Origin: Saprospiraceae bacterium
Lineage (GTDB): Bacteria > Bacteroidota > Bacteroidia > Chitinophagales > Saprospiraceae
Length of the DNA: 64,000 nucleotides
NCBI GenBank assembly: GCA_965223165.1
Contig: CBDCVQ010000009.1
Location: forward strand, 119,544 to 183,543
Reading direction: 5' to 3'
The translations under genes and the position numbers were made by a program. Below, in pieces: positions 30,137 to 57,231 of the stretch (within the stretch, counting starts at the first letter, position 1; each line of letters begins with the position of its first letter). The notes under the pieces were generated by a model. The model ran no database searches, was not told the DNA's origin, and saw only the letters and a list, made by a program, of their open reading frames with translations.

Positions 30137-30214
30137 CGTGCCCTGGAGGATTTAGTCATCGGTGTCGCGCGTTTAATTTATGTGAAATTCCTTGAGATTG
30201 TCGTACTTCAAGGG

Positions 30215-31594
30215 TCAAATCCCATATTTTTCCAAACGGCGATAGAGTGAGGTGCGAGTCAGACCCAGTTCAGCCGCAGCCTTAGAGATATTGCCATTGT
30301 GCTTTTTCAGAGCCATGCGAATTAGTTTTTCTTCTGCAGCTTCCAGCGTGGTGGGCTCAGGATCAGAATCCACTAGTGATGCGGAAGATCGGTTGACACC
30401 AAGTGCAATATCATCAGGCAGGATCACCACACCCTCACACATGATAACGGCACGTTCGATGATGTGCCGTAACTCTCGCACGTTGCCCGGCCAGTGGTAC
30501 TGATCCAACTTTTGCAAGCTCTCGTCGCTGAGTTGCAGCTCGGGTTTCTTGTACTTCTTGCGGTACTGCTCAAGGTAAAAGTGGGTTAGCAGCTCCACGT
30601 CACCCTTCCTGTCTCGGAGGGCAGGCAACTGGATTTCGACCGTGTTTATGCGGTATAAGAGGTCCTGTCGAAATGTATTTTCTTTGACCATGTCGTAGAG
30701 CGGCATATTTGTCGCGCAAATGAGGCGAATGTCGACACGAAGCGGCTGATTGCTGCCCACCGGAATAATCTCGTGGCGCTGTAAGGCCTGCAACAACTTG
30801 GCCTGCGAAGACTGCGGCAGATTGCCGATCTCGTCGAGAAACAACGTCCCGCCTGAGGCCGCTTCAAAACGGCCGATACGATCTTGATGTGCGCCGGTAA
30901 ATGACCCTTTTTTATGGCCAAATATCTCGCTTTCAAAGAGGGATTCGGGAATGGCCCCCAGATCGACCGGAATAAAGATCGAAGCGTTGCGTTGCGACTT
31001 GCGGTGAATGGCTCGTGCGATCAGCTCCTTGCCTGTACCATTTTCGCCCAGGATCAATACATGCGCATCCGTATCTGCGACTTTGTCGATGGTGCGAAAG
31101 ACAGCCTTCATTGTAGCGGACTCACCTACGATATCCACAAAGGGCTGATCCACCGCCTCACTGAGCGCACGTTGTGATACCGCCAGCTTTTCCGCCTTCT
31201 TTTCTGCCTGCCTTCGGTCGAAGGCTGCGCGGATTGTTGCGACCATCTTCTCATTGCGCCAAGGTTTTTCCACAAAGTCTGTCGCACCAGCCTTCAGTGC
31301 CTCTACCGCGATCTTGACGTCGCTGTAGGCCGTCATAGTGACCACCGGCACAAATGGCTGAATCTCCTTGGTCTTGCGCAGCCACTCCAGGCCTTCCTCT
31401 CCGGAGTCCCTCCCCTTGCCAAAATTCATGTCGAGTATGACGACATCAGGCTGGTGTAAACGCAATAAGCGAGGCAGGTGATAGGGGTTGTGATCGGTGA
31501 AAACGGCTTTGAAATGTTGCTTGAGCAGGAACTTGAGTGAAAACAGAATGTCCTCCTCATCGTCGATAATCAATATCGTACCTTCCTTGGCCAT
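30215..31594 (-). CDS. Sigma-54-dependent response regulator (NtrC family: REC, AAA+, Fis-type HTH)
   Basis: REC domain (ILIIDDEEDILFSL...VVILDMNF), Walker A GENGTGKE, GAFTGA-type loop (HKKGSFTGA), Walker B LFLDEIG, the PGNVRELRH motif, and C-terminal HTH NISKAAAELGLTRTSLYRRLEKYGI. Confidence 0.95.
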   Translation of the reverse strand: MAKEGTILIIDDEEDILFSLKFLLKQHFKAVFTDHNPYHLPRLLRLHQPDVVILDMNFGKGRDSGEEGLEWLRKTKEIQPFVPVVTMTAYSDVKIAVEALKAGATDFVEKPWRNEKMVATIRAAFDRRQAEKKAEKLAVSQRALSEAVDQPFVDIVGESATMKAVFRTIDKVADTDAHVLILGENGTGKELIARAIHRKSQRNASIFIPVDLGAIPESLFESEIFGHKKGSFTGAHQDRIGRFEAASGGTLFLDEIGNLPQSSQAKLLQALQRHEIIPVGSNQPLRVDIRLICATNMPLYDMVKENTFRQDLLYRINTVEIQLPALRDRKGDVELLTHFYLEQYRKKYKKPELQLSDESLQKLDQYHWPGNVRELRHIIERAVIMCEGVVILPDDIALGVNRSSASLVDSDPEPTTLEAAEEKLIRMALKKHNGNISKAAAELGLTRTSLYRRLEKYGI

Positions 31595-31614
31595 ACCTCA
31601 AAGGTAGCCAATAG

Positions 31615-31630
31615 TGTACGATATCGTACA
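31615..31630. promoter_or_regulatory. Perfect 16-bp palindrome TGTACGATATCGTACA (candidate enhancer site for the adjacent sigma-54 activator)
   Basis: Read directly. It lies in the divergent spacer between the regulator (start 31594) and the adaptor gene (start 31746). Extra ATCGTAC(A) half-sites occur at 31574-31580 and 31656-31663. A 15/16 match is at 51447-51462. Confidence 0.6.
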
Positions 31631-31704
31631 TATAGTGCACGGTTCCGCACAGATTATCGTACACGCATTTGCACCCATACCTCTAATGTCTTGATTTACA
31701 ATAA

Positions 31705-31730
31705 CATATAGTTTTGGCATATATTTCTAT
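31705..31730 (+). promoter_or_regulatory. Conserved promoter box CATATAGTTTTGGCATATATTTCTAT (sigma-54 -24-like TGGCA; alternatively a Bacteroidota -7 box TAGTTTTG)
   Basis: 25 of 26 nt are identical to 51539-51564. TGGCA at 31715-31719 lies about 94 nt from the palindrome centre. The -12 region reads TCTA where canonical TGGCAC-N5-TTGC spacing predicts TTGC, so the sigma-factor assignment is open. Confidence 0.5.
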
Positions 31731-31745
31731 TACAGATACATAGAT

Positions 31746-32996
31746 ATGGATAGAAAAATCGAACGAAAGAAATGGCGATGGCAACGAATCCTACCGATTG
31801 TCATCATCGTAGGGATCTTGGGCTACGTGGGTCAGAGCGTCTATCGCAATAGCGGTAAGAGCAGGCTCAATGTCCAACCGGAGCGCCTACTCTTTGATAC
31901 GGTGCAGGAAGGTACCTTTCAAGAATTTATTCCTGTGACAGGGTCCGTCCTACCGATCAAGACGGTACTGATTGGGGCGGTCGAAGGAGGACGAGTCGAG
32001 AGCAAATTTCTGGAGGATGGCGTGCTGGTGAAGGCCAATCAGAAGATTCTCCAACTAAGCAATCCGGATCTCCAACTCAACTATGTGACGCAGGAGGCCT
32101 CTATCGTGGCTCAAATCAATCAAATCCGGAGCAACAGTCTCCTGATGGAGCAGCAGAGCCTACGACTCAAGGAAACTGCGCTGGACATCGACTATCAGAT
32201 TGATTTGTTGAGTAAGCGCGTGTCGAGAAATAAGAGCCTCTATGGCGATGGTGTCATTGCCGAAGTAGAATTTCAAGAGACGGAGGACGAATTTGAACAC
32301 CTCGAACGTCGAAAGCTACTACTGCAGGAGACCATTAAAAAAGATAGCGCCTCCGCCGAGCTGCAGCGACAACAGATGCAGAACACCCTGGACCTGATGC
32401 AACGCAACCTATCGATCGCCCGCAAGAGTCTTGAAAATCTCACCGTACGGGCACCGATAGATGGTCAACTTTCAGGCTTGGATTCAGAGCTGGGTGAACT
32501 GATCATCGAGAGCAGCCAAATTGCGCAGATTGACGACCTCTCCGATTTCAAAATACGCGTCCAGATCGATGAATTCTATATCTCTCGAGTTTTCGCAGGT
32601 CAATCCGGCTCATTTCAATTTGCGGGGGACACGTATTACCTAACCATTCAGAAAATATTTCCCCAGGTGATCAATGGGGCCTTCGCTGCTGACATGCTGT
32701 TTGAGGGCGAGACGCCCGATGGCATCAAGCGAGGCCAGACCGTCTCCGTCAAACTTGAGCTGAGTGCGCAGGAACGTGCACTGCTTGTCGCCAAAGGCGG
32801 ATTCTATCAGACGACCGGTGGCAACTGGGTCTATGTGCTTACGGCAGACGGAGCCGTTGCCACCAAGCGAGACATACGAGTGGGCAGGCAAAATCCCAAT
32901 TTTTACGAGGTGCTCAGCGGGCTCCAGAGTGGAGAGGTCGTAATCACCTCCAGCTATGAAAACTTTGGTGACAAGGATGAGCTTGTCATGAGATAA
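31746..32996 (+). CDS. HlyD/MacA-type periplasmic adaptor (membrane fusion protein)
   Basis: 416 aa with an N-terminal anchor helix (ILPIVIIVGILGYVG), a long coiled-coil middle, LTVRAPIDGQLSG (lipoyl/beta-barrel motif), and a C-terminal beta domain. It is the first gene of the ABC operon. Confidence 0.85.
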   Translation: MDRKIERKKWRWQRILPIVIIVGILGYVGQSVYRNSGKSRLNVQPERLLFDTVQEGTFQEFIPVTGSVLPIKTVLIGAVEGGRVESKFLEDGVLVKANQKILQLSNPDLQLNYVTQEASIVAQINQIRSNSLLMEQQSLRLKETALDIDYQIDLLSKRVSRNKSLYGDGVIAEVEFQETEDEFEHLERRKLLLQETIKKDSASAELQRQQMQNTLDLMQRNLSIARKSLENLTVRAPIDGQLSGLDSELGELIIESSQIAQIDDLSDFKIRVQIDEFYISRVFAGQSGSFQFAGDTYYLTIQKIFPQVINGAFAADMLFEGETPDGIKRGQTVSVKLELSAQERALLVAKGGFYQTTGGNWVYVLTADGAVATKRDIRVGRQNPNFYEVLSGLQSGEVVITSSYENFGDKDELVMR

Positions 32997-33091
32997 AAAG
33001 TAATTAGAAATGTAACTATATCGCTCGTCGTGCGTCCGTTTTTTGTGCGACCCGATTGAAAAATCAATTTAATCAACTTAACTAACCATTG

Positions 33092-33778
33092 ATGATAAAA
33101 ACTGACAAGCTCGTCAAGGTCTACACAACCGAAGACGTAGAGACCACAGCCCTTAACGAGGTCAATCTCGAAATCCAGGAGGGCGAATTTGTGGCCATAA
33201 TGGGGCCCTCAGGCTGTGGCAAATCGACCTTACTTAATGTATTGGGCATGATCGATAGCCCCACGGCAGGAGATTACTTCTTTCTCGAGCAAGAAGTAGG
33301 ACAACTGCCTGAACGCAAGCGGTCCAACGTACGCAAGCACAATCTTGGGTTCGTATTTCAGAGCTTTAATCTCATCGACGAACTGACAGTGTTTGAGAAT
33401 GTGGAACTGCCCATGTTATACACCAACACACCTAGTGCTGAGCGTAAGAAGAGAGTGGAAGAGCTGTTGGAAAACATGAAGATGATGCATCGGCGCAATC
33501 ACTTTCCCCAGCAATTATCGGGAGGACAGCAGCAGCGAGTCGCCGTGGCGCGAGCTATTGTCAATCATCCCAAATTAATTCTTGCGGATGAACCCACCGG
33601 TAACCTGGACAGTTCGAACGGCGATGATGTCATGAGGCTAATGGCCGATCTGAATGCTGCTGGCACCACCATCGTGATGGTGACACACTCGCAGTATTGC
33701 GCAGAGTTTGCCAACCGGATTGTGCGAATGCTTGACGGCCAGGTCGTTACGGAGAATGTGGTAAGACAATTCCTTTGA
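33092..33778 (+). CDS. ABC transporter ATP-binding protein (MacB/LolD-type NBD), copy A
   Basis: Walker A GPSGCGKST, Q-loop FVFQSFNL, signature LSGGQQQRVAVARA, Walker B LILADEPTGNLD, and H-loop MVTHS. Confidence 0.95.
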   Translation: MIKTDKLVKVYTTEDVETTALNEVNLEIQEGEFVAIMGPSGCGKSTLLNVLGMIDSPTAGDYFFLEQEVGQLPERKRSNVRKHNLGFVFQSFNLIDELTVFENVELPMLYTNTPSAERKKRVEELLENMKMMHRRNHFPQQLSGGQQQRVAVARAIVNHPKLILADEPTGNLDSSNGDDVMRLMADLNAAGTTIVMVTHSQYCAEFANRIVRMLDGQVVTENVVRQFL

Positions 33779-33852
33779 TTTAAAAAAAACAATATTGAGT
33801 ACTCGATGACCGGAGCGGATCAATTAAAACGCTCGGTACACCATTTATAACT

Positions 33853-34557
33853 ATGATCAAATTAATAAACATCGAACGCTATTATAAGAGCGGTCTTCAA
33901 AAGTCATGGGTACTCAGGGATATCTCTTTAGATATTGAGGAAGGTGAATTTGTCACGATTATGGGCCCTAGCGGCTCAGGCAAAACTACCCTCCTTAATA
34001 TCATTGGGATGTTGGATCAACCCAATGGGGGAGAATATTATTTCATAGATGAACCCGTACATCGCTTCAACGAGCGACGCAGAACAGATCTCCACAAGCA
34101 TTACATCGGATTCATATTTCAGGCCTATCACCTGATCGACGACCTCACCGTGTACGAGAATATCGAAACGCCATTGCTGTACAAGAAGGTAAAGCGCAGC
34201 CAACGGAAGGCTGTGGTCGCTGACATTCTCGATCGATTTAACATTGTGGCAAAGAAAGATTTGTTTCCCCATCAACTGTCTGGTGGGCAGCAGCAGCTTG
34301 TCGGGGTAGCACGTGCCGTGGTTGGCAAACCCAAACTGCTGCTTGCAGACGAGCCGACGGGAAATCTGCACTCCTCCCAGGGCAAAATTATAATGGACAC
34401 CCTCGCTCAATTGCACAAGGAAGGAATGACCATCGTACAAGTCACTCATGACGAAAAGAATGCGCTCTACGGGGACCGCATCATTCAACTTTGGGATGGC
34501 TTTATCAAGGACGACAAGATCGTCAGAGAGCGACAACAGGTGGAAAGTCCAGAATGA
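33853..34557 (+). CDS. ABC transporter ATP-binding protein (MacB/LolD-type NBD), copy B, divergent from copy A
   Basis: Walker A GPSGSGKTT, signature LSGGQQQLVGVARA, Walker B LLLADEPTGNLH, and H-loop QVTHD. Confidence 0.95.
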   Translation: MIKLINIERYYKSGLQKSWVLRDISLDIEEGEFVTIMGPSGSGKTTLLNIIGMLDQPNGGEYYFIDEPVHRFNERRRTDLHKHYIGFIFQAYHLIDDLTVYENIETPLLYKKVKRSQRKAVVADILDRFNIVAKKDLFPHQLSGGQQQLVGVARAVVGKPKLLLADEPTGNLHSSQGKIIMDTLAQLHKEGMTIVQVTHDEKNALYGDRIIQLWDGFIKDDKIVRERQQVESPE

Positions 34558-34716
34558 CCTGATCGCTGACGGCGGTATAGCGCAGACCGTCCCTACAGCC
34601 CCTGCACTGCGGAAGAGCATCCGGTTGGGCACGCTGAAGCATACTTACTCGACGGTCTCAAAGAGACATGTTGCATTTTATTGGGCTCGTAGCCAAAATA
34701 AATCTCATTTGACCCA

Positions 34717-37167
34717 ATGCTAAAAAATTACATTAAGATTGCTTGGCGCAACCTGGTGCGCAATAGAAATTATGCCGTCATTAATATTCTAGGGCTGGCC
34801 ATTGGCTTGGCTTGTTTCATGTTGATCATGAGCTATGTCCAAGATGAACTTAGCTACGACAAATTTCATGAAGATGGCGATCAGATCTACCGGATGGCAT
34901 TAGAACGCATCTATCCGGGGCGTTCTCGCCATTACGCCATCATTCCTCAATCCTACGCTGCAGCCGTAAAAAACGATTATTCGGAGGTAGAAGAATCCTG
35001 CCGTATCTTCTATTTTCAGGGAAACAATCTCGTATTTAAGGTCAACGACGAACCCTTTGAAGAGGAGTACTACCTATGGGCAGATACGACATTCTTCGAT
35101 CTATTCAAGATCCCGCTCATCGACGGCGATATCACTAATGCGTTGTCCAAGCCCAATTCGGTGGTCCTGACCCGCACTCAGGCAGAAAAATACTTTGGAT
35201 CTGAGGTAGCGGTCGGTAAAATGCTGGATTTTCCCCAAGCCCAGAATTCACTTACAGTGACCGGCGTCTGCGAAGACCTACCTGAGAATTCACACTTGCG
35301 TTTCAACATGCTGATCTCCTCCTCTTCACTGGGACAATTTCTCAGCACCCCAAATTATATCAACTTTAGTGCCTATACATACCTGAAGTTGCATCCCGAA
35401 GCTGATCCGCAGCAGCTGGAGGCAAAATTTCCAGAAATGGTCGTCAAATATGCCTCCGGCCCGGTACTCACACAATTTGGCGTCGACTACGCCGAGTACC
35501 AGCGACAGGGCAATGGCTATCGGTATTTTCTACAGCCGCTGCCCGACATCTATCTGGAGTCCAATCTCGAATCCGAGATAAAGCCCCCTGGCTCTAAGCA
35601 GCGAGTTTATTTCTTTCTCGCCATTGCCGTACTGATCCTTGCCATTGCCTGCATTAATTTCATGAATCTAGCTACGGCTCGCTCCACTGGCCGGGCACGT
35701 GAGGTGGGCATTCGAAAAACGTTGGGATCGGAGCGGCGACAAATCGCGCTACAGTTTCTACTGGAGGCCGTGATCATCAGCTTGGTCGCGGCCGGCATCG
35801 CACTGGTTATCAATTTTCTTGTGATCAACGGCTTTAATTCCCTCACGGGCAAAAACTTCTCGCCGAGCCACTTTGGAAGCATTAGTTATTTGGCCATACT
35901 GATTGGGATCGCCGGCCTAGCGGGTCTGTTGGCAGGTGCGTATCCGGCCTTTGCCCTGTCTTCATTCAAGCCCGTCGAAGTATTGAGCGGAAACCTCATG
36001 CAGAAAACAAAGGGTGCAGGACTAAGGAATGTGCTGGTCGTATTTCAGTTTGGTATTTCCGTATTTCTCATCATCTCAAGCCTCATTGTCTACCGGCAGT
36101 GGATGTATACCCAGGGCAAGGAACTTGGATTTGACAAAGACAGCGTCATCACGATCCAAGGCGCCGGCGGCATGGATATCCAACAGGGTGAAACCTTCAA
36201 GAAGGAGCTCGCTCTCATCCCTGGTGTTGAAGCGGTAAGTGGTTGCAACACGCAGCCCGGGCAGCAATATTTTGGTATGTCCTTCCAACCCCAGGGAGCA
36301 TTGGAAATGACCACGGGCAGTGGTCTTATCGTCGATGAAGGATACATCGAATGCATGAAGATGGATGTGGTGGCCGGACGGAGCTTCTCGAAGCAGTTTA
36401 TGGACACACTGTCGATCGTCATCAATGAAGCCGCAGCTCGGGAGATGGAGTTAACCGATCCGGTGGGCAAGACCATCACCAGCAACGATGGCTTTCTCAA
36501 TCCAGTGGAAGATCAGCAGTCGGTGTATACGGTGATCGGAGTCGTCAAAGATTTTCATTTTCAATCGCTGCACCACCCCATATCTCCCCTATTTCTCGTG
36601 CATAACCAGAGAAGCTTCAACCCTGGGGTGGACCAACAGGTGACCATTCGGGTGCAGGGCCAGGCTCTGCAGGGTGCACTAGCACGCATGGGCAACCTCT
36701 GGGCCGAGTTTCAACCAGATCTGCCCTTCCGCTACGCCTTTCTCGATCGAGAATGGGCGGCACTCTATGAAAAGGAGGTGACGACGAGGAAAGTATCGGG
36801 CCTGTTTACGCTCATCGCCATATTTATCGCCTGCCTAGGACTTTTGGCTCTGGCAGCCTATACGGCAGAAAGAAGGACCAAAGAGATCGGCATCCGCAAG
36901 GTCTTGGGGGCGTCTGTTGGCAATCTGGTCACTCTGCTGTCCAAGGACTTCCTAAAATTGGTCGTCATCTCGATACTTATTGCCTCACCCGTAGCATGGT
37001 ATGCTATGAACAAGTGGTTGGAAAATTTTGCATACCGAATTGAGATTGGGCCGGGCGTATTTGTGCTGGCTGCCGTCTTGGCCATCGTGATCGCCTTTCT
37101 GACCGTCAGTTTTCAAAGTGTCAAGGCCGCACTACTCAATCCCATGCATTCCCTACGAGATGAATAA
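34717..37167 (+). CDS. Duplicated FtsX/MacB-type ABC permease (paralog 2)
   Basis: 816 aa with N-terminus MLKNYIKIAWRNL. FtsX motifs are INFMNLATARSTGRAREVGIRKTLGS and RRTKEIGIRKVLGAS. There are two large extracytoplasmic domains and the C-terminus NPMHSLRDE. Confidence 0.9.
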   Translation: MLKNYIKIAWRNLVRNRNYAVINILGLAIGLACFMLIMSYVQDELSYDKFHEDGDQIYRMALERIYPGRSRHYAIIPQSYAAAVKNDYSEVEESCRIFYFQGNNLVFKVNDEPFEEEYYLWADTTFFDLFKIPLIDGDITNALSKPNSVVLTRTQAEKYFGSEVAVGKMLDFPQAQNSLTVTGVCEDLPENSHLRFNMLISSSSLGQFLSTPNYINFSAYTYLKLHPEADPQQLEAKFPEMVVKYASGPVLTQFGVDYAEYQRQGNGYRYFLQPLPDIYLESNLESEIKPPGSKQRVYFFLAIAVLILAIACINFMNLATARSTGRAREVGIRKTLGSERRQIALQFLLEAVIISLVAAGIALVINFLVINGFNSLTGKNFSPSHFGSISYLAILIGIAGLAGLLAGAYPAFALSSFKPVEVLSGNLMQKTKGAGLRNVLVVFQFGISVFLIISSLIVYRQWMYTQGKELGFDKDSVITIQGAGGMDIQQGETFKKELALIPGVEAVSGCNTQPGQQYFGMSFQPQGALEMTTGSGLIVDEGYIECMKMDVVAGRSFSKQFMDTLSIVINEAAAREMELTDPVGKTITSNDGFLNPVEDQQSVYTVIGVVKDFHFQSLHHPISPLFLVHNQRSFNPGVDQQVTIRVQGQALQGALARMGNLWAEFQPDLPFRYAFLDREWAALYEKEVTTRKVSGLFTLIAIFIACLGLLALAAYTAERRTKEIGIRKVLGASVGNLVTLLSKDFLKLVVISILIASPVAWYAMNKWLENFAYRIEIGPGVFVLAAVLAIVIAFLTVSFQSVKAALLNPMHSLRDE

Positions 37168-37230
37168 CCCCGGTGCAGAGATGGCGGGCTGACGCCGCCC
37201 AAGATCACTTAAAAGAAAAAGCATACAGTC

Positions 37231-39663
37231 GTGCTATTCAACTACTTAAAGATCATCAGCCGTACATTGATGAAGTATCGGTACTTCACTGCCATCCATG
37301 TGGCGGGGTTGTCCTTGGGTCTTACCTGCTGCCTGCTTATCAGCTTCTTCATCCGTCATGAGTTCAGCTTTGACCGTCATCACCTAAAAGGTGACCGAAT
37401 CTATCGCATCGGCGTCGTGGAGACGAGTCCTCACGGGATACGGCATTCGGGTGGCACACCATATCCATGTGGTGAGGCAATGCGCCTTGATTTTGAAGAC
37501 CTGGAGCAAGTGGTGCAGATCTACCAGGCAGGCGAAGTGGGGCTGAAATTACCAGGTGGTACACGTTATCCGGTCGAAAACATCGTGTTTGCGGAGCCGT
37601 CGTTTGTGGATGTCTTTGACATCAAGACCAGCCGTGGAGATATCTCACACTCTTTGAGCACGCCCAACCGCGCCGTCATTGATGAGACGACCGCTCGACT
37701 CCTATTTGGCGATGATGACCCCCTGGGTCAGGTGCTGAGCGTCAATAATGTCATCACTGTCGAAGTGGGTGCCGTCATGCAAGATTTGCCCACAAATACG
37801 CACTTGCCGGCATCCATCATGCTGTCACATGAATCACTCAGTGCCGAATTTGTGGGTATAGAAATAAAAAACTGGGGAGTGACTGTGGGCGGCGCCACCT
37901 ACGTCTTACTTCCTCCCGGCATCCCACCCTCCACCTATGAGGGACGACTCCAGGCATTTGCTGACAAATACATGAACAGTGAGGAAGACAGTGGCTTCTC
38001 GCATGCATTGACGCTTCAAGCTCTGGCCGACATTCACTTTCAACCCCACTACTCAAGTAATTCGCCCGTTACTCCGATCCGGCCCATCTACCTTTGGATC
38101 TTCGCTTGTATCGGCCTGCTGGTGCTGGCCATCGCATCATTCAATTTTATAAATCTTTCCACGGTCCAGGCCCTGAAGCGACATAAGGAGGTAGGCGTAC
38201 GTAAGGTGCTCGGAGCCAATCGCCGTCAATTGATGCAGCAATTTCTAGGAGAGGCACTGATCATAAGTTTTGTTGCGGGCGTCCTAGCCTGCGCCTTCGC
38301 CATGTTTAGCCTGCCCTATGTCAATGACTTACTTAACAAGCAGATCGACACGGCGATCTTTTCGTACCTACCTAATGGCCTGATCATCGTGGGACTACCG
38401 CTGCTGATCGGAATCCTGTCTGGCATCTATCCCGCGCTGGTACTTTCTCGTTACGAGCCAGCCAGCGCCCTGGTACCTTCCCACCGAAGGGGTCGCAGTG
38501 GAAGCCAGTGGTTGCGGAGATCGCTGGTCGTTGCCCAATACACCATCACGATCGGCTTAATTATAGGGACCATTGTCGTGTCGCGACAGGTCAGATACAT
38601 GGAAGGCAAAGACCTTGGATTTCAAAAGCAAGGCATTGTGATGCTGGACATCCCTCAGCAGGATCAACTGGAGCCGTTGCGCAGTGAATGGCTCAGAGAT
38701 CCTTCGATCCATCAGGTTACGTTCACGCTCGGCGCCCCCACCTCCGTCAACAACATAGGCACATCCTTCCATCCCAAAGGCATGGACCCAAGCGTACATA
38801 CCTACCGCATGGACCTAAAAACGGTGGACTATGCCTATGCGGACACCTACGACCTTGAATTAGTTGCAGGGCGGTGGATGACCAAAGAGGAGGATCGACG
38901 TGCGGCATTGGAGGTACCAAGCGAAGATAGATCATACGTCTTTGTCGTTAATGAAGCCCTTGCCAAGCAAGTGGGGCATGCAGACCCTGCAGCCATGGTG
39001 GGTCAACGCCTGATTACTGGCATCAACGACATAGAGGCTGAGGTCATCGGTGTGGTTAAGGACTTTCACTCCACATCACTGCACAATGAAATTGAACCCA
39101 CGCTGTTCATCCATTTCCCCCGGTTGGATTATCGAGCGGGACTGAAAATTGATCTCGCGGATACTAAGGCCACGTTGGCACATATTGAAGATGTTTGGAC
39201 ACGTCAGTTTCCGGATGATTATTTCAACGCCACCTTTTTGGACGAGACGATTGCACTGCTGTACGACAATGAGCAACGACTTTTTCAGCTCTTCCGGATA
39301 TTCACAACCCTGGCCATTGTCATAGGAGCACTTGGCCTGTTTGGCCTAGTCAGCTACATCGTGGAGCTGCGGACCAAGGAGATCGGCATCCGGAAGGTGT
39401 TGGGCGCCACCGTAGGAAGTATATTACTGCTGGTGTCCAAGGAATTTATCATGATTGTCGGCAGTGCCATCCTGCTCGCGATTCCGATGGCCTGGTATTG
39501 CATGGAACGCTGGCTGCAGAACTTTGCATTCCACATTAATTTGGGGCTAGGAATATTTGTGTTGGCCATATTGATCACTTTTTCGATCACAATTGGCGCT
39601 GTGGGATTTCAGAGCGCAAGGGCCGCATTGATGAATCCGGTGGATTCGCTGAGAAACGAATAA
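37231..39663 (+). CDS. Duplicated FtsX/MacB-type ABC permease (paralog 3), GTG start
   Basis: 810 aa. The N-terminus MLFNYLKIISRTL aligns with the other paralogs only if GTG 37231 is the start. Motifs are FNFINLSTVQALKRHKEVGVRKVLGA and LRTKEIGIRKVLGAT; the C-terminus is NPVDSLRNE. Confidence 0.9.
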   Translation: MLFNYLKIISRTLMKYRYFTAIHVAGLSLGLTCCLLISFFIRHEFSFDRHHLKGDRIYRIGVVETSPHGIRHSGGTPYPCGEAMRLDFEDLEQVVQIYQAGEVGLKLPGGTRYPVENIVFAEPSFVDVFDIKTSRGDISHSLSTPNRAVIDETTARLLFGDDDPLGQVLSVNNVITVEVGAVMQDLPTNTHLPASIMLSHESLSAEFVGIEIKNWGVTVGGATYVLLPPGIPPSTYEGRLQAFADKYMNSEEDSGFSHALTLQALADIHFQPHYSSNSPVTPIRPIYLWIFACIGLLVLAIASFNFINLSTVQALKRHKEVGVRKVLGANRRQLMQQFLGEALIISFVAGVLACAFAMFSLPYVNDLLNKQIDTAIFSYLPNGLIIVGLPLLIGILSGIYPALVLSRYEPASALVPSHRRGRSGSQWLRRSLVVAQYTITIGLIIGTIVVSRQVRYMEGKDLGFQKQGIVMLDIPQQDQLEPLRSEWLRDPSIHQVTFTLGAPTSVNNIGTSFHPKGMDPSVHTYRMDLKTVDYAYADTYDLELVAGRWMTKEEDRRAALEVPSEDRSYVFVVNEALAKQVGHADPAAMVGQRLITGINDIEAEVIGVVKDFHSTSLHNEIEPTLFIHFPRLDYRAGLKIDLADTKATLAHIEDVWTRQFPDDYFNATFLDETIALLYDNEQRLFQLFRIFTTLAIVIGALGLFGLVSYIVELRTKEIGIRKVLGATVGSILLLVSKEFIMIVGSAILLAIPMAWYCMERWLQNFAFHINLGLGIFVLAILITFSITIGAVGFQSARAALMNPVDSLRNE

Positions 39664-39799
39664 ACGTGGGTGCGACCCAAGGGCTGGCGCAGCACCATCC
39701 TGCATTGGGAGGGTAATCCCGAACGATTTTTTTAAGAAAAGTAGGTCGCCTAAACCAATCATTGGACTCATGGCTGCCACAACCGAAAGTACGATTACT

Positions 39800-42241
39800 A
39801 TGTGGAGAAATCATCTGATGGTGGCTATCCGGAGTCTCTCCAAAAAGAGATTCTACACGATCATCAACATAGCTGGCCTTGCCTTGGGATTAATGGCGGC
39901 CATCTTTATCTGGCAGGACGTCTCTTACGAACGGAGCTTTGACGAGTTCCATGACCACGCGAATCGAATTTTTCGATTGGCAACCGTCTTTGAGACCCAT
40001 GGGGGACAGTTGGAGAATGACGCCTCCAATGCCGCGCCTGTCGGGCCGGCCCTGAAGGCCGAATTTGCCGAGGTCGAAGATTTTGTCCGGATCTCGCCTG
40101 AGTACGGACGCATGGTCTTGCAATACGGGGACCAGACCCACGAGCAACACAAAGTCTATTATGTAGATTCTAATTTCCTTCAGTTTTTTGATCACGAAAT
40201 CATCCAGGGAGATCCGCATACTGCCTTGGTGGCCCCCTACTCCATCGTCCTGACAAGATCCGCGGCGGAACGCTACTTTGGCCCGCGCGAACATTGGACA
40301 GAGACCTATGTCGGTAGAAGCTTGCGGGTCAATCAAACCGCTGACTACCAGATCACCGCGATTATTGAGGACCCGCCCCCAAATACTCACTTTAGGTTCG
40401 GCTCCCTCCTTTCCTTTACCACCTTTCCGATCACCAATGGCGATCCCAGCAACGAATGGGAGTGGAATGATTTTTACACCTACATCCTTTTGGGAGAGGC
40501 TGCGCAAATGCACGACCTGGAGCCTAAGCTGCGCGCCTTTGCCGACAGACACATCAATCAAAAAGGAACCGAGGGCTATACCGTCTCGTACTTGCCTCAA
40601 TCCCTCAAGGGCATTCATTTAAATTCCAGGTTAGGGTACGAATTGCAAGCGAATGGAGATGCGACCACGACTAATTTCTTATTTCTAATCGCAGTCTGTA
40701 TTCTTCTGATCGCATGGGCAAATTACATCAACCTCTCCACCGCTCAAGCAGAGGACCGAGCTGAAGAAGTGGGTATTCGAAAGGTGATTGGGGCCAATCG
40801 GCGCTCGCTAATCACCCAATTTTTGATCGAAGCATTGGTGGTAAATACCAGCGCAGTAGCACTAGCAATATTATTGGTATTTCTCCTGCAGCCATGGATG
40901 AATGCGCTGACGGGCAAGACCCTCGAAGCCTTTGCCTATTTTCCCATTTCCGTGCCCGGTGTCTTTCTGCTCCTGTCCATTGGCAGCACCTTAATCTCGG
41001 GCATCTATCCATCCGTAGTCTTGTCTGGCTATTCACCGTCAAAATCCCTGCAACCTCAAATGCGCGGTGGTCCGCAGCAGTGGCTGAGGAAAGGCCTCGT
41101 GACCTTCCAGTATATGTCCTCGATCGTTTTGATCATTGGGACCTTTGTCGTTTTCAGGCAATTGGACTTTATGAAAAGCGCCGACCTTGGTTTCTCGGCA
41201 GATCACAAATTAATTCTCAATGCTCCATCCATCTATACGGATTCGGTGCACCACCTGCGCTACCAGACGTTCAAAACCAAACTTCTCCAGCATCCCACGA
41301 TATCCAGCGTCACGGCCTCATCAGCGATACCCGGCAAGTTTTACAACGACCTGGATAACTGGGGAGGCATCCGTATGCAGAGTGCCGACGACAGCCAAAA
41401 AGCGAGTTTTACCCTCTACCGGGTGGACGACCACTATTATGAGACCTACGGCTTGCAGGTCATCGCCGGCCAGGCCTTTTCCAATGAGACCACTGCTGAC
41501 GACCGCTCGCTGGCGGTCAATGAGGCAGCCCTTCAATTGCTCGGATTTGATGATCCAAAGGAAGCGATCGGCCAGAAAGTCCGTATGCAAAGTGATCGCC
41601 GCATATTTCCTATCTCCAACGTATTTCGAAACTATCACCACAAGTCGCTCCGTCACAATCACGAACCCACCATTCTTTGGAATTTCATTCCAGATCCCCT
41701 GTATTATTCCATCAAGTATCATGAAAGTGCCTCAGCCGAACCCAACCAACTGCTCCGCACGGTCTCGGAGATTTGGGAGGAAGTGTTTCCTGACAACCCC
41801 TTTGTACACACCTTCTTTGAAGACCAATACAATGACCAGTACACATCTGACAGCCGCCTGGGAAGGATCATAGCAGTCTTTGCCCTTTTTGCCGTTTTCA
41901 TCGCTTGTCTAGGCATCTTAGGCATGACTTCCTATATGATCGCCATGCGCACCAAAGAATTGGGCATTCGAAAAGTGCTTGGAGCCAGTGTCCGGAGCAT
42001 TGTGCTGGTCCTGTCAATGGATTTCGTTTGGCTAATTGTGCTTGCCTCACTCGTGGCTATTCCGATTGCCTTTGTCCTTGCCAGCAGGTGGCTCGAAAAC
42101 TTTGCCTACAAGACCTCTCTGGATTGGTGGCTATTTGCTACCGCTGGGGTGCTGACGCTGGTCACCGCGATGGTCACCGTCAGCTTTCAAAGCGTCCGAG
42201 CGGCCTTGAAGAATCCGATCGATGCCCTTCGTACCGAATAA
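39800..42241 (+). CDS. Duplicated FtsX/MacB-type ABC permease (paralog 4)
   Basis: ATG 39800 (MWRNHLMVAIRSL) was chosen by alignment with the paralog N-termini; the ORF is open from 39770. Motifs are ANYINLSTAQAEDRAEEVGIRKVIGA and MRTKELGIRKVLGAS; the C-terminus is NPIDALRTE. Confidence 0.9.
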   Translation: MWRNHLMVAIRSLSKKRFYTIINIAGLALGLMAAIFIWQDVSYERSFDEFHDHANRIFRLATVFETHGGQLENDASNAAPVGPALKAEFAEVEDFVRISPEYGRMVLQYGDQTHEQHKVYYVDSNFLQFFDHEIIQGDPHTALVAPYSIVLTRSAAERYFGPREHWTETYVGRSLRVNQTADYQITAIIEDPPPNTHFRFGSLLSFTTFPITNGDPSNEWEWNDFYTYILLGEAAQMHDLEPKLRAFADRHINQKGTEGYTVSYLPQSLKGIHLNSRLGYELQANGDATTTNFLFLIAVCILLIAWANYINLSTAQAEDRAEEVGIRKVIGANRRSLITQFLIEALVVNTSAVALAILLVFLLQPWMNALTGKTLEAFAYFPISVPGVFLLLSIGSTLISGIYPSVVLSGYSPSKSLQPQMRGGPQQWLRKGLVTFQYMSSIVLIIGTFVVFRQLDFMKSADLGFSADHKLILNAPSIYTDSVHHLRYQTFKTKLLQHPTISSVTASSAIPGKFYNDLDNWGGIRMQSADDSQKASFTLYRVDDHYYETYGLQVIAGQAFSNETTADDRSLAVNEAALQLLGFDDPKEAIGQKVRMQSDRRIFPISNVFRNYHHKSLRHNHEPTILWNFIPDPLYYSIKYHESASAEPNQLLRTVSEIWEEVFPDNPFVHTFFEDQYNDQYTSDSRLGRIIAVFALFAVFIACLGILGMTSYMIAMRTKELGIRKVLGASVRSIVLVLSMDFVWLIVLASLVAIPIAFVLASRWLENFAYKTSLDWWLFATAGVLTLVTAMVTVSFQSVRAALKNPIDALRTE

Positions 42242-42259
42242 GCAATTCCAAGATCGGAT

Positions 42260-42397
42260 CAATTTCAATGGCAATTTCAATTTCAATGGCAATGGCAATT
42301 TCGATGGCAATGGCAATTTCAATGGCAATGGCAATGACAATTTCGATGGCAATGGCAATTTCAATGGCAATGGCAATTTCAATGGCAATGACAGTGG
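42260..42397 (+). repeat. Hexanucleotide tandem array (CAATKK), 23 units, with an 18-bp higher-order unit CAATTT-CAATGG-CAATGG
   Basis: Parsed unit by unit from the sequence. Variants are CAATTT, CAATGG, CGATGG, CAATGA and CAGTGG. It starts 18 nt after the paralog-4 stop codon. Confidence 0.95.
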
Positions 42398-42502
42398 TCG
42401 CCAGGCCGTGTGATCATCCAGATATACCAAACACTAATCATTTGGCAGTAATGACAAGCTAACCTGGCGGCCTTCTACCTTGCTACGCTACCTTGTCAAA
42501 AA

Positions 42503-44261: not shown

Positions 44262-45484
44262 TCAAACAGCTACCCTGGGCAGCGACGGATTAAGGTGCAT
44301 AAATAGATCATAGATCGAGACTCCGGTCTTGGTCGAAATCCAATTCGGATCGATCTCCGGCGAACCAGATCCTATCAGGGTAGCAATATCACCCACCCGC
44401 ACCGTTTGCTCTTGGCCGATCTCCAAGATGGTGTGACTGGCGGATACTGCGCCAATGACGGGATAAGTCTTGGATCCGATCGAGACAACCGCACCTTTGG
44501 TCGCTGCTCTGGGATAACCATCTGCGTGTCCCACAGGAAGGGTCGCCACCCACGTAGGCTCCGTTGCCACGTATCTCCTTCCGTAACTCACGCTATCTCC
44601 GGCCCCCAATCGCGCCACTCTCACTACCCTTGCTTTTAGTCGCACCGTGCAAGCCAGATCGGCTGATGGTCTCTGCCTGGCTGGGTCGTTTGGATAGCCG
44701 CCGTATAGCGCCATGCCGGGACGCACCATATCGAGATGCGCGGCAGACAAGTCGAAGACCGCACTGGAGGAGGCTGCATGCAGCACCCCAATGGCTACAC
44801 CCTGCGACCTTGCTTGCTCGGCCACCGATAAAAACCGATCCAACTGCTCGACATCAAAATCCGGATCTCCGTAAAGCCCATAAACATGCCCTCGATCGCG
44901 ACCATTCCTGCGTCGTGTAGTTTGGTGAGCCAGGGCAGGGCTTTGCGATAAGGCATACCCATGCGACTCATGCCCGTATCTAAGTACACTTGGGCTGAAA
45001 TGGGCGCTGCCTTTCGACCACTCATGGCTGCAATCAGATCGAAGTCGTCCTCAGAATAGAGACAAGGTTGAATATTTCGATGCACCAATTCGGCAGCGAG
45101 GGTTTGAGGCACCCGAGCCATCAGATGGATCGGTTTAGTAATCCCCGCATCTCGCAAAGCAAAAGCCGAAGCGGCCTTGACCACCGCAAAGCCAGCAATC
45201 TCAGGCCGAGACTCCAGATAGCTGCCTGCCTGGATCAGGCCTAATCCATAGGCATTGTTTTTTACCACCGCAAGAATGGGCCTGCCCCCTCCCAGGCGAT
45301 GCACCTCCTCTACATTGTGCCATAATGCTGCCCGATCCACCTCTATCCAGGGATCGAAACGGTCTTTATCGAGCTGTCCTTCCCCTACCATTGAGCCCTG
45401 ATGTCCAAGAAGAGAGCTGCCGAGGCCGGTCGCGGCCACAGATAGAGCCGCCTGTTTCATAAATGTACGTCGAGGTTGTGCCAT
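44262..45484 (-). pseudogene. alr: Alanine/amino-acid racemase (PLP, fold type III) with a Tat signal, interrupted by a 1-nt frameshift near 44867
   Basis: The N-terminal ORF runs from ATG 45484 (MAQPRRTFMKQAAL..., VVKNNAYGLG PLP-Lys motif ... GMFMGFTE). The C-terminal ORF ends at 44262 (FLSVAEQ...HAASSSAVFD...DMVRPGMALYGG...VSYGRRY). Inserting one base at GGATCTCC (44863-44870) restores ...GFTEDPDFDVEQLDRFLSVAEQ. Confidence 0.75.
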
Positions 45485-45669
45485 GGTATTGATGCAAATC
45501 AAGAAATGCGAGAAATGAGATGCCCTTACCAAATATATCAATTCCAACCTCAGGTAGAGGCCAGCCTTGGCTCCTGCTCGTACGCTAATTTGCTGGCTTA
45601 GACCACAACGAATCTTCCCCTTCCTGCAACCTTGACTCAGTTTTGTCCGTCCTTGATATATACCTGATT

Positions 45670-51667: not shown

Positions 51668-54115
51668 ATGTTTCGAAATAATCTGAAGATCGCATGGCGA
51701 AACGTCCTTCGCCACAAACTGTACAGCTTGCTCAACGTGCTTGGGCTGGGATTTGGCATCGCCTGCTTTCTCTTCATAGCACTATATGTCATCGATGAGT
51801 TAACCTTCGACCGATTTCACCAAAAGTCGGATCGGATATATCGACTCGTCCAACATCGTGAATCGCCCGAGGAGGGTGTCCAAAAATTTGGAGCCGTTTC
51901 TTACAATGCCGGCGTAGCTGCGCGCGAGGAGATCGCCGGCGTGGAAAGCAGTACCCATCTCTTCATGTTTGGTCGGGCCGTCCTGCGCAATCCGGCCAAC
52001 CAAAATGCCTTCTATCAGCCATTCTTAACGGCTGAGCCCACTTTTTTTGATCTCTTTGATTTTGCGTTCATCTCAGGAGATCCATCTACGGCTCTGGCAG
52101 AACCAAACACGGTCGTGTTGGAGCAAGACCTGGCTCAAAGACTCTTTGGCGACCTTGACCCCATGGGACAAATACTACGTAGCGATCGGGGCATGGATCT
52201 GGAGGTTACCGGTGTGCTGAAAGACCTACCTTCCAATTCGCATATTCAATTTGAATCCTTGATCTCACAGGCTACCCTCGAAGCGGTACCCTTTTGGGAG
52301 AGGAATATGCCCGGCGATTGGTCCAGCCAGAACTTTGGCACCTACCTGGCACTGCACCCCGACCAGGAGCCTGCAACGATCGGTGCGCAATTGACGGATT
52401 TTGCCCGGGCCCGAGCAAGGGAAGAACGGCCTTTTACGGGCCATTTGGAATTGCAACCCCTCACCGACATTCACTTTGGATCCGAGGGATACCAGCGCGA
52501 ATTAAACGAGCAGAAGAGCACCTATACTTATCTCTACATATTTAGTTTGATCGGACTTTTTATTGTACTCATTGCTTGTGTCAACTATGTAAACCTGGCC
52601 ACCGCACGTTCGTCCAAGTACAGCCGAGAGGTCGGCGTAAGAAAGGTGGTAGGTGCCGGTCGCCGACAGTTGTTCGCTCGCTTCCTTTCTGAAAGTGTAG
52701 TGTTGACGCTGTTGGCTTTCTTCCTGGCCGTGGCCTTGACCCAGGCAGGCTTACCTCTGTTTAATGAATTTACCGGCAAAGCACTCACTCTCAATTTATT
52801 TGCCTCTGGCTGGACCATCCCCACCATGGCTGCGATCATTTTCCTGGTCAGCCTATTGGCCGGTAGTTATCCCTCGATCTATCTCTCTCGATTTCGGCCA
52901 TCCGTGGTACTCAAGGGCGTACAAAACACGGAAAAGGGTAAGCATGGTCTGTTGAGGCGAGGACTGGTCGTACTTCAGTTTTCGATCTCCATTCTGATGA
53001 TCATCGGCACATTGGTCGCGTGGCGTCAGGTAAGTTTCGTGATGCATCGTGATCTGGGTTTTGCCCAAGACCAGCGTATCGTAGTAGATATAAATAGTGG
53101 TCGGGTGCGGCAGGGATTTGAAACCATCAAGCATGGCTATGAGCAATTGCCGGACGTAAGATCGGTTTCTGTGAGCAGCCGCGTCCCCGGCGAATGGAAG
53201 ACTCTACTGCAGGCGGAGATCCGACCGGAAGGCAAGTTTGCCGAAACGGGGCCTACCCCTTGGTTTATTGGTGCGGACGAGGATTTTCTCGAGACCTTTG
53301 AAATCGATCTGATCAGCGGGCGAAATTTTGATCCGCAGCGTCCCATGGATTCCGCATCAATCATTCTCAATCAGCAAGCGGCAGCGGTCTTAGGCATCGA
53401 TGCTGCCGCGGGACAGTCCGTGCAAGTGGTCAGCCGAATTGCCAATGGTTCAGAGCGGATGTTTGACGAACCATTTCGGGCGCAAGTCATTGGCATCATG
53501 GAGGACTTCAATTTTCAGTCGTTATACGAGCCCGTTACTCCACTGGTGCTGGCATACCGCAGTAATCCGGTGCAAGCCATCGATTATTTTACCGCCCATG
53601 TATCCGGTCAAAACACCGAAAGGACGATCCAGCAGATGACCGAGATCCTGCACTCCGTCGATCCTGAACAATTATTCGAATATCACTTTTTGGACGAGCA
53701 GATCGATCAATTTTACGAGGCAGACGTCCAGCGCTCACAGCTCTTTTCTACCGCAGCCCTCTGTGCCATCTTTATTGCGTGCCTGGGGCTCTTTGGTCTC
53801 GCCGCATTTATGGCCGAGCAACGCACCAAGGAAATTGGCATACGGAAAGTGCTGGGATCGAGTACCGTTGGCATCGTCCAACTGCTGTCGAAGGATTTTA
53901 TCAAACTGGTACTGATTGCGCTGTTGGTGGCCTCTCCCCTTGCCTATCACTTCATGGAGCAATGGCTGCAGGGGTTTGCCTACCGCATTAGCATCGCCTG
54001 GTGGATGTTTGCGGTAGCCGGTGCCTTTGCCGCTACCATCGCTTTGGTGACGGTAGGATATCATAGTATTAGAGCCGCTACGTCCAACCCGGCAGAAGCA
54101 TTGCGGAGTGAATAG
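51668..54115 (+). CDS. Duplicated FtsX/MacB-type ABC permease (paralog 7)
   Basis: 815 aa with N-terminus MFRNNLKIAWRNV. Motifs are VNYVNLATARSSKYSREVGVRKVVGA and QRTKEIGIRKVLGSS; the C-terminus is NPAEALRSE. Confidence 0.9.
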   Translation: MFRNNLKIAWRNVLRHKLYSLLNVLGLGFGIACFLFIALYVIDELTFDRFHQKSDRIYRLVQHRESPEEGVQKFGAVSYNAGVAAREEIAGVESSTHLFMFGRAVLRNPANQNAFYQPFLTAEPTFFDLFDFAFISGDPSTALAEPNTVVLEQDLAQRLFGDLDPMGQILRSDRGMDLEVTGVLKDLPSNSHIQFESLISQATLEAVPFWERNMPGDWSSQNFGTYLALHPDQEPATIGAQLTDFARARAREERPFTGHLELQPLTDIHFGSEGYQRELNEQKSTYTYLYIFSLIGLFIVLIACVNYVNLATARSSKYSREVGVRKVVGAGRRQLFARFLSESVVLTLLAFFLAVALTQAGLPLFNEFTGKALTLNLFASGWTIPTMAAIIFLVSLLAGSYPSIYLSRFRPSVVLKGVQNTEKGKHGLLRRGLVVLQFSISILMIIGTLVAWRQVSFVMHRDLGFAQDQRIVVDINSGRVRQGFETIKHGYEQLPDVRSVSVSSRVPGEWKTLLQAEIRPEGKFAETGPTPWFIGADEDFLETFEIDLISGRNFDPQRPMDSASIILNQQAAAVLGIDAAAGQSVQVVSRIANGSERMFDEPFRAQVIGIMEDFNFQSLYEPVTPLVLAYRSNPVQAIDYFTAHVSGQNTERTIQQMTEILHSVDPEQLFEYHFLDEQIDQFYEADVQRSQLFSTAALCAIFIACLGLFGLAAFMAEQRTKEIGIRKVLGSSTVGIVQLLSKDFIKLVLIALLVASPLAYHFMEQWLQGFAYRISIAWWMFAVAGAFAATIALVTVGYHSIRAATSNPAEALRSE

Positions 54116-54307
54116 CAATTTCAATGGCAATAGCAATTTCAATGGCAATTTCAATGGCAATGGCAATTTCAATTTCAATGGCAATGGCAATGGCAATTTC
54201 AATGGCAATAGCAATTTCAATGGCAATGGCAATTTCAATGGCAATAGCAATTTCAATGGCAATAGCAATTTCAATGGCAATTTCAATGGCAATGGCAATG
54301 GCAATTA
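54116..54307 (+). repeat. Hexanucleotide tandem array (CAATTT/CAATGG/CAATAG), 32 units, starting at the base after the stop codon
   Basis: Parsed unit by unit. The stop TAG is at 54113-54115 and the first CAATTT is at 54116. A recurring 18-bp super-unit is CAATTT-CAATGG-CAAT(G/A)G. Confidence 0.95.
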
Positions 54308-54356
54308 GCAGTGAACAATTAGCAATTAGCAATGAACAATTAACAATGAGCAATGA
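54308..54356 (+). repeat. Heptanucleotide tandem array (RCAATKA), 7 units
   Basis: GCAGTGA ACAATTA GCAATTA GCAATGA ACAATTA ACAATGA GCAATGA, read directly and contiguous with the hexamer array. Confidence 0.85.
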
Positions 54357-54430
54357 GCAGTTTATTAGGATCGTAGAGCACGGACGCTTTGCGGGAGTGA
54401 TCTGCGAGCCGCAACCAGGGATACAACTAG

Positions 54431-54528
54431 CAGTGAACAATTAGGCAATGGCATTTCAATATCAATAGCAATGTCAATGACAATGTCATACAGTGCACAA
54501 ATCAACAATTCAACATCTACACAATTCC
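54431..54528 (+). repeat. Degenerate CAAT-core repeat tract
   Basis: CAGTGAACAATTAGGCAATGGCATTTCAATATCAATAGCAATGTCAATGACAATGTCA...CAACAATTCAACATCTACACAATTCC. It mixes decayed 6-8-bp CAAT units between the heptamer and octamer arrays. Confidence 0.7.
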
Positions 54529-54728
54529 ACCATAAAACCATAAAACCATAAAACCATAAAACCATAAGACCATAAGACCATAAGACCATAAGACCATAAG
54601 ACCATAAAACCATAAAACCATAAAACCATAAGACCATAAGACCATAAGACCATAAAACCATAAAACCATAAAACCATAAAACCATAAGACCATAAAACCA
54701 TAAAACCATAAAACCATAAGACCATAAA
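54529..54728 (+). repeat. Octanucleotide tandem array (ACCATAAR), 25 units, ending 2 nt before the ATG of paralog 8
   Basis: Parsed unit by unit. With A = ACCATAAA and G = ACCATAAG the order is AAAA GGGGG AAA GGG AAAA G AAA G A. It is exactly 200 bp, followed by AT then ATG (54731). Confidence 0.95.
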
Positions 54729-54730
54729 AT

Positions 54731-57158: not shown

Positions 57159-57169
57159 GGAGGTCAGTT

Positions 57170-57217: not shown

Positions 57218-57231
57218 CGACACCATAACAC

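Follow-up and report, generated by a model that had tools for sequence, protein, structure and literature searches.

Prokaryotic long simple-sequence repeats (LSSRs) are built from units of 5-11 nt (Mrazek et al. 2007, as summarised in PMC4679880). The systems used here for comparison are the TAACTGA heptamers of Beggiatoaceae, Cyanobacteria and some Bacteroidetes (MacGregor 2015, PMC4679880), together with the cyanobacterial STRR heptamers. A TAACTGA set has mostly 2-6 copies and lies in one orientation (forward), within a few nt ahead of a start codon (PMC4679880). Heptamer arrays in intergenic DNA, missing in close relatives, are on record for Flavobacteriia (PMC4679880), and the STR density of Bacteroidota is unusually high (PMC12699852). 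No description of CAATNN arrays was found in the literature, the nearest accounts being PMC4679880, PMC12699852 and PMC6749651. The four arrays described here, all located in a 64,000-nt stretch of Saprospiraceae DNA (the window), have the head-to-tail units of prokaryotic long simple-sequence repeats and, like these, a length greater than composition predicts.

Array 1 begins 18 nt past the stop codon (TAA) of an FtsX/MacB_PCD permease, the last gene of an MFP-ABC-ABC-FtsX x3 cluster, and thus marks the 3' end of that cluster (Table 1). Its in-phase hexamers are CAATGG (10 units), CAATTT (8), CGATGG (2), CAATGA (2) and CAGTGG (1), and this unit-by-unit count agrees with the preliminary description of the locus, in which 23 hexamers of CAATTT and CAATGG with minor variants were reported. 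The 18-bp super-unit noted there was recovered by Tandem Repeats Finder (TRF) as a period of 18 nt (consensus CAATTTCAATGGCAATGG), along with periods of 6 and 42 nt. The 42-nt period (2.7 copies, 95% matches) is due to the duplication, within the array, of a seven-unit, 42-bp block, CAATTT-CGATGG-CAATGG-CAATTT-CAATGG-CAATGG-CAATGA/TTT. The 18 nt between the stop codon and the array, also taken for decayed units in the preliminary description, can plausibly be read as three such units with one deletion. The gene that follows array 1 is SnoaL-like and unrelated (Pfam).

Table 1. Permeases, repeat arrays and spacer segments at the four array loci of the window.
Feature	Positions	Strand	Basis and remarks
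FtsX/MacB_PCD permease upstream of array 1	39770-42241	+	Pfam; ends ...ALRTE-TAA
Spacer, 18 nt, G CAATTC CAAGAT CGGAT	42242-42259	+	read off the sequence
Array 1, 23 hexamers with 18-bp and 42-bp higher-order periods	42260-42397	+	TRF, unit count
FtsX/MacB_PCD permease before array 2	51668-54115	+	Pfam; ends ...ALRSE-TAG; GAATAG in phase with array 2
Array 2, 31 hexamers: CAATGG x16, CAATTT x11, CAATAG x4	54116-54301	+	TRF, unit count
Heptamer tail of array 2: CAATTAG, CAGTGAA, CAATGAA, CAATGAG ...	54302-54359	+	unit count
Second short CAATNN run: CAATAT, CAATAG, CAATGT, CAATGA	54440-54490	+	unit count
(ACCATAAR)x25 array, 58% A, 5% G	54529-54729	+	TRF, composition
FtsX/MacB_PCD permease before array 3	54731-57103	+	Pfam; ends ...SLRNE-TGA
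Array 3: (CAATGG CAATTT)x3.5, then CAATAG, CAATAC; 9 units	57105-57158	+	TRF, unit count
(TTCAACAA)x7 array, 2% G	57168-57222	+	TRF, composition
FtsX/MacB_PCD permease before array 4	61300-63735	+	Pfam; ends ...VLREE-TGA
Array 4, hexamer part: CGATGG, CAATGG x4, CAATGA x2, CAATTT	63737-63784	+	unit count
Array 4, continuation: alternating CAATGAA/CAGTGAA heptamers, hexamer island inside	63785-64000	+	TRF, unit count; array extends past the window end (64000), length given is a lower bound

Three further arrays of the same orientation had been noticed behind permease genes, at 54116, 57105 and 63737, and all of them are indeed found on the + strand, directly after the stops: array 2 begins 0 nt past the TAG at 54115, and arrays 3 and 4 begin 1 nt past the TGA codons at 57103 and 63735, respectively. 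The CAATKK dimer CAATKKCAATKK has 45 matches in the window, all on the + strand and all inside the four arrays, while 0.29 +/- 0.59 are expected by chance (dinucleotide-preserving shuffles). Variants private to an array are CGATGG in array 1, CAATAG in array 2, the pure 12-mer in array 3 and the heptamers in array 4. Arrays 2-4 belong to one co-directional run, with the order PadR, three FtsX genes, array 2, FtsX, array 3, FtsX, S41 peptidase, FtsX, array 4.

The spacers are mosaics, in which the CAATKK hexamers adjoin CAATGAA/CAGTGAA heptamers, the (ACCATAAR)x25 array and the (TTCAACAA)x7 array, none of which figures in the preliminary description. An 80-nt unique segment, richer in G+C and containing a hairpin, separates the heptamer tail of array 2 from the second CAATNN run. 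Strictly alternating CAATGAA/CAGTGAA heptamers are present both in this tail and in the continuation of array 4, and TRF also gives a 98-bp higher-order period. The (ACCATAAR)x25 array is composed of 15 ACCATAAA and 10 ACCATAAG units, arranged in blocks, and 1 nt separates it from the ATG of the permease at 54731-57103, so that the entire translation-initiation region of this gene is repeat. The (TTCAACAA)x7 array ends 9 nt upstream of the ATG of the permease at 57232-59610; it is preceded by an isolated GGAGG (~57161-57165), too distant from the ATG to be a Shine-Dalgarno sequence.

The window holds ten FtsX/MacB_PCD paralogs (the ORF at 18555-21005 is a TonB-type receptor and not an FtsX gene). 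Arrays are found behind four of the ten, the other six being without an array, compared with none of ~35 other genes (Fisher p ~0.001, the four cases being spatially non-independent), and the enrichment behind FtsX genes in this window is real. At the four arrays the permease genes terminate in Glu-stop, as GAATAG, GAATGA+G, GAGTGA+A and GAATAA+G; these termini share the phase of the arrays and differ by one base from the units CAATAG, CAATGAG, CAGTGAA and CAATTAG. This terminus may have seeded or anchored the local arrays, but the suggestion is a weak one, since the six paralogs without arrays likewise end in Glu/Asp-stop. As a general cause it was rejected, with the same terminus in array-less paralogs and arrays after unrelated termini elsewhere; it could be a local contributor only.

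The MFP-ABC-ABC-FtsX x3 cluster and a sigma-54 two-component pair (histidine kinase at 28802-30136, NtrC-type regulator at 30215-31594) are arranged divergently, and this arrangement (28802-42241) is kept, in synteny, in the related locus L191, where six successive FtsX genes are separated by 10-40-nt spacers free of repeats. Elsewhere in the window, between the convergent genes 13471-15048 (+) and 15333-15737 (-), there are three direct copies of a 32-bp unit (15158-15251), each with the palindrome TCTAATAATTAGA, which look like an iterated operator or binding site. The alanine racemase at 44262-45547 (- strand) is split into two overlapping ORFs, one (44795-45547) with most of the N domain and the other (44262-44843) with the end of the N domain and the C domain; it represents a frameshifted pseudogene or else an error of the assembly at this place.

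The closest homologs of the permease in front of array 1 are 54-57% identical to it, and one of them comes from a Saprospiraceae MAG. No CAATKK array is present in five related loci (L121, L122, L189, L190 and L191; 112 kb with ~20 FtsX genes), and the 3' flanks of the orthologs of this permease in the five loci are plain. By this comparison the link to FtsX 3' ends is a local one: orthologous permeases at 54-57% identity carry no array. An array of another kind is present in L122 at 5511-6117, 2 nt past the stop of a different FtsX paralog. It is a ~600-bp, C-free and purine-rich array (AAAGGGTAA, AAAAAGGTA and others), which holds a 63-bp higher-order unit in 3.4 copies at 100% identity, and its GGG tracts, 5-6 nt apart, could form G-quadruplexes. 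Because the orthologs are plain and the single array in L122 is unrelated, the arrays behind FtsX genes are sporadic and lineage-specific rather than a conserved feature of the gene family.

Beyond these loci, a scan for (CAATKK)x5 in one genome per species gave at least 120 matches, with several genomes listed twice. At least 78 of them are pure CAATGG runs, at least 54 of these 78 standing in a frame with no stop over 150 nt to either side, suggestive of coding repeats of the Asn-Gly type; the open-frame runs are mostly from Proteobacteria and Actinobacteria, with Bacteroidota making up 2 of the 78 among the matches listed. The mixed-unit matches (CAATTT, GG, GT, TG) number at least 26 and, among the matches listed, 21 of 26 are from Flavobacterium, Saprospiraceae or other Bacteroidota, 18 of these 21 being non-coding. 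A metagenome scan for CAATGGCAATTTCAATGGCAAT added 66 further contigs, and in both the species-genome and the metagenome set the arrays are mostly intergenic. Flavobacterium cellulosilyticum AR-3-4, for example, carries an array of 18 units (L094). Read as simple repeats, the CAATDD mixed-unit arrays would form a recognisable microsatellite family typical of the phylum.

In respect to gene context, 21 of the family arrays have an upstream neighbour on the same strand and 19 have one on the opposite strand, the figures for the downstream neighbour being 18 and 21, respectively; co-directional, convergent and divergent arrangements are all found, and the orientation is ~50:50. At the loci in other genomes no FtsX gene adjoining a family array was found (tblastn). 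The upstream neighbours examined there are AhpC, Sir2, a HerA-like helicase, OEP, an ABC-2 permease, a HAD hydrolase, a Por_Secre_tail protein and an Hsp70-like protein, a heterogeneous set that speaks against a shared functional class of neighbour genes. The proposed association with FtsX 3' ends therefore holds within the window (4/10 vs 0/~35) and fails outside it, where FtsX neighbours are missing, the orientation is ~50:50 and the orthologs are bare. The preliminary description had opposed to this association a generic satellite scattered over the genome. With no FtsX neighbour at the loci elsewhere, unrelated genes around them and ~50:50 orientation, the CAATDD family behaves, by that standard, as a generic lineage-wide satellite, and a permease-specific device finds no support.

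The start of the arrays relative to the genes is similar elsewhere, with 10 of 21 independent same-strand family arrays starting no more than 9 nt past a stop codon. Some same-strand arrays include the stop codon as AAATAG or GAATAG. The stop adjoining same-strand arrays is TAG at 8 of 16 loci of other genomes, which seems high for the A+T-rich Bacteroidota, and in some cases the stop codon may be provided or substituted by the unit CAATAG. The spacers of the family arrays often hold other 7-8-nt arrays as well, as they do in the window.

More elaborate forms of the repeat were also observed. In a Saprospiraceae MAG (L045, 7723-7828) an inverted copy of a CAATNN array stands behind the array itself, with 38-nt arms that are 87% complementary and a 30-nt loop, and a weaker inverted pair is present in a Flavobacterium genome (L031, 3249-3363). 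Such pairs would form a long intergenic hairpin; the window arrays are without a partner of this kind. In Flavobacterium myungsuense (L107, 2560-3250) three CAATNN arrays each lie inside a tandem unit of ~220-280 bp. This repeat is a composite and not a bare microsatellite, because its unit joins a unique part that is conserved, with the hairpin CCTGCCTGTCGGCAGATAGG in it, to a tail of CAATTCC heptamers.

The length of the family arrays was compared in metagenome contigs of the same locus from different samples, at loci other than those of the window. In the case of L123 and L179, the flanks are 100% identical over 790 nt and the arrays have 25 and 26 units in a different order, while the third contig of this locus, L125, with flanks 98-99% identical, has 30 units. 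L136 and L155 have 22 and 16 units next to a left flank that is 100% identical, and with flanks 98-100% identical there are 4 vs 6 units in L150 and L172 and 21 vs 22 units in L129 and L152. The arrays of the CAAT-core family mutate much faster than their flanks, i.e. they are hypervariable. Array 1 is, by analogy, plausibly a hypervariable spacer as well, and the hypervariable spacer is the best supported of the three ideas put forward in the preliminary description (spacers, recombination substrates between paralogs, multi-site binding platforms): the variability is observed at other family loci with flanks 98-100% identical, and for the window locus it follows by analogy only. The view of array 1 as a non-coding short-unit repeat was likewise borne out, and its status as a slippage hotspot is likely.

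In independent assemblies some arrays are identical by unit count and composition (L129 = L130; L126 = L133 = L143 = L185). An origin of the arrays as assembly artefacts, the other outcome considered in the preliminary description, is unlikely, because of these identical arrays, the private variant units and the multi-unit duplications; the family is reproduced in isolate genomes as well as in independent assemblies. Between L129 and L176 the array is kept across flanks that are just 77% identical, which hints at persistence.

The hexamers are not equally variable along their length. In the 70 hexamers of the window, C1 and T4 are invariant, A2 and A3 vary four times, and G/T/A are found 42/23/5 times at position 5 and 43/23/4 times at position 6. 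In 551 units from 56 other arrays, counted outside the search seed and with core figures somewhat biased by the extension rule, A2 is kept in 97%, A3 in 93%, C1 in 76% and T4 in 84%, while at positions 5 and 6 G, T and A are near-even and C amounts to 2-3%. The family consensus is C-A-A-T-D-D, with C almost never in the last two positions, and the CAAT core recurs in distant Bacteroidota classes. Conservation is far stronger in the core than in the tail, which simple neutral decay does not predict.

The arrays carry no sign of a defined structure or of a known signal. The RNA of 42242-42500 folds worse than dinucleotide shuffles (z = +1.63), and so does that of 54116-54730 (z = +3.77); no terminator-like or sigma-70-like promoter site was found inside the arrays, no -35/-10-type elements bracket them, the window arrays have no inverted repeats or inverted partner, and no match to Rfam 15 at gathering score was found anywhere in the window. 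These results speak against an intrinsic terminator or REP/BIME-type palindrome, on the grounds of the poor folding and the lack of terminator-like sites and inverted repeats, and, with the promoter and Rfam scans empty, also a sigma-70-type promoter or a known RNA family. With the gene of a sigma-54 activator close by, a mimic of the sigma-54 promoter (TGGCA-N6-TTGCA) came into question; it was discarded by inspection, there being no TTGC on the TGGCA strand of the array. A Rho-loading (rut) site was also rejected by inspection: G (19-22%) exceeds C (17%) in the arrays, and the related array of L122 is C-free. CRISPR arrays consist of direct repeats of ~24-48 nt with unique spacers of similar length, and the contiguous 6-8-mers without spacers do not fit this type.

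In our judgement the arrays are probably long simple-sequence repeats that have grown by slippage and multi-unit duplication up to the coding sequence, and that serve at most as unstructured spacers. Array 1 is a non-coding microsatellite of a CAAT-core hexamer family that populates the intergenic DNA of Bacteroidota. Its growth may be ascribed to slipped-strand mispairing and unequal multi-unit duplication, of which the 12-, 18- and 42-bp higher-order periods and the array-private variant units would be the traces. Expansion would halt at sequence under selection, and the arrays would stop at, or a few bases from, a stop codon because growth ends where selection begins. The role of the arrays is probably nothing sequence-specific, but that of a variable-length, structure-free 3'-UTR or intercistronic spacer, and their placement behind four FtsX genes is most likely a matter of local, genome-specific history, in which the Glu-stop terminus may have served as seed or anchor. 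Several observations sit uneasily with neutral slippage. All four window arrays share orientation and gene family (p ~0.001 for the family), compared with the ~50:50 orientation elsewhere, and the CAAT core is more strongly conserved than the last two positions. The core conservation and the retention of the array between L129 and L176 across 77% flanks keep a functional reading alive. A required sequence-specific role is nonetheless disfavoured by the ~50:50 orientation, the placement between convergent genes, the lack of arrays at orthologous loci and a copy number that drifts freely.

The functional reading that survives best, although we consider it unlikely, is that the arrays, transcribed as 3'-UTR or intercistronic RNA, are multi-site binding or standby sites for a general binder of single-stranded nucleic acid, such as ribosomal protein S1, a Csp or an RRM protein, and that copy number tunes the translation or stability of the mRNAs of the flanking permeases. 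It would account for the marked lack of structure (z = +1.63 and +3.77) and for the conservation of the CAAT core next to two variable trailing bases. The co-directional permease cluster contains arrays 2 and 3, and G-poor, A/C-rich arrays reach the next start codons (ACCATAAR x25 to 1 nt, TTCAACAA x7 to 9 nt). Translation in Bacteroidota starts largely without Shine-Dalgarno pairing, and A-rich, unstructured leaders are favoured, which is on the side of this explanation. Binding of S1, Csp or Csr has likewise been proposed for the TAACTGA heptamer repeats (PMC4679880). The family-wide evidence points the other way: the orientation is ~50:50, arrays are also found between convergent genes, a position that rules out a role as leader, the orthologous permease loci are without arrays, and near-identical strains have drifted freely apart in copy number and unit order.

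In a wider form of this idea, the CAAT arrays would be a conserved cis-element of Bacteroidota, in which CAAT, repeated every 6 nt, is recognised by a phylum-wide nucleic-acid-binding protein and copy number tunes the expression of the neighbouring genes. This is improbable in our view. If true, the variable dinucleotide and the copy number would tune occupancy by a single-strand or duplex binder, and arrays at gene boundaries would set strain-specific expression, here of FtsX/MacB-type efflux permeases. Should selection be the cause of the core conservation, the arrays would amount to a tunable cis-element of a new kind, and this in a phylum with signals for transcription and translation unlike those of model bacteria.

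Equally doubtful is a role of the direct arrays as recombination substrates, i.e. as portable homology for unequal crossing-over by which permease cassettes are deleted, amplified or shuffled. The geometry would allow it, with the same-orientation arrays 2, 3 and 4 bracketing one permease (54731-57103) and a three-gene block (57232-63735), and with near-identical runs of 50-190 bp, a length sufficient for RecA-type recombination. The ten paralogs, however, share just 24-37% protein identity; they are ancient, and nothing in the cluster has been duplicated recently. The near-perfect arrays were thus not inherited with gene duplicates, and their origin by recent gene duplication is ruled out. 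Moreover, the family is found elsewhere at single, unrelated loci, and no rearranged variant of the cluster was found in the five related loci. There is no sign of recent array-mediated duplication, and neither recombination between paralogs nor multi-site binding platforms, both raised in the preliminary description, are supported by the evidence.

A contingency (phase-variation) locus, in which the unit number switches or tunes a downstream gene as in the SSR loci of Haemophilus or Neisseria, is more doubtful still. The family is hypervariable in copy number, as this would require, and behind arrays 2 and 3 there are permease genes that could be affected. The arrays, however, follow stop codons and are not coding, a 6-nt unit is frame-neutral, no promoter-type elements bracket the arrays, array 1 is followed by the unrelated SnoaL-like gene, and arrays elsewhere lie between convergent genes. 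Finally, a coding repeat (frames MAIS... or NGNF...) or a mis-assembly can be given hardly any weight: the hexamer parts can be read without a stop in two forward frames and give ORFs such as 54124-54444, but this ORF has no Pfam match, the arrays stand in differing frames relative to the upstream stops and the 7- and 8-nt units (heptamers, octamers) break any frame, which excludes a coding or read-through peptide, while the recurrence of the family in isolate genomes and independent assemblies, with some arrays identical, argues against mis-assembly.

On the simple-repeat reading, the arrays are of practical relevance in several respects. Because they change between strains with identical flanks, they could be used to type strains in populations of Flavobacterium and Saprospiraceae. 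They are a known break-point risk for short-read assemblies. Stop-free frames run from the arrays on both strands, as at 53735-54745 (-) and 41905-42462 (+), with ORFs of 106-189 aa. Such long ORFs are spurious, and caution is advised, as gene callers could list them as hypothetical proteins.

Compared with the known systems, the window arrays resemble LSSRs, as these are portrayed in the summary cited above, in being head-to-tail, beyond chance length, mostly intergenic, attributed to slippage and sporadic among related genomes; they differ from that portrayal by their mixed units with a fixed CAAT core, their 12/18/42-bp super-units and their junction with 7- and 8-nt arrays. With the contingency loci of host-adapted pathogens the CAATDD arrays have in common that they are hypervariable short tandem repeats changing by slippage. 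Unlike those loci they lie outside coding sequence and promoter elements, are frame-neutral, belong to an environmental organism and have no evident switchable gene. The TAACTGA repeats share more features with the window arrays: they lie between genes, are unstructured by prediction, carry stop codons when read forward, can abut the upstream stop or overlap it, form mosaics with other heptamers in Flavobacteriia and are missing from the orthologous spacers of close relatives (PMC4679880). The window arrays are nevertheless not repeats of this type, as none of their units (CAATGG/CAATTT, CAATGAA/CAGTGAA) is a rotation of TAACTGA. Unlike the TAACTGA sets, they have 9-31+ units, begin at stop codons and belong to a family with no orientation preference elsewhere. 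The start-codon placement of the TAACTGA sets does not apply to them either, the CAATKK arrays abutting the upstream stop and the ACCATAAR and TTCAACAA arrays the next start.
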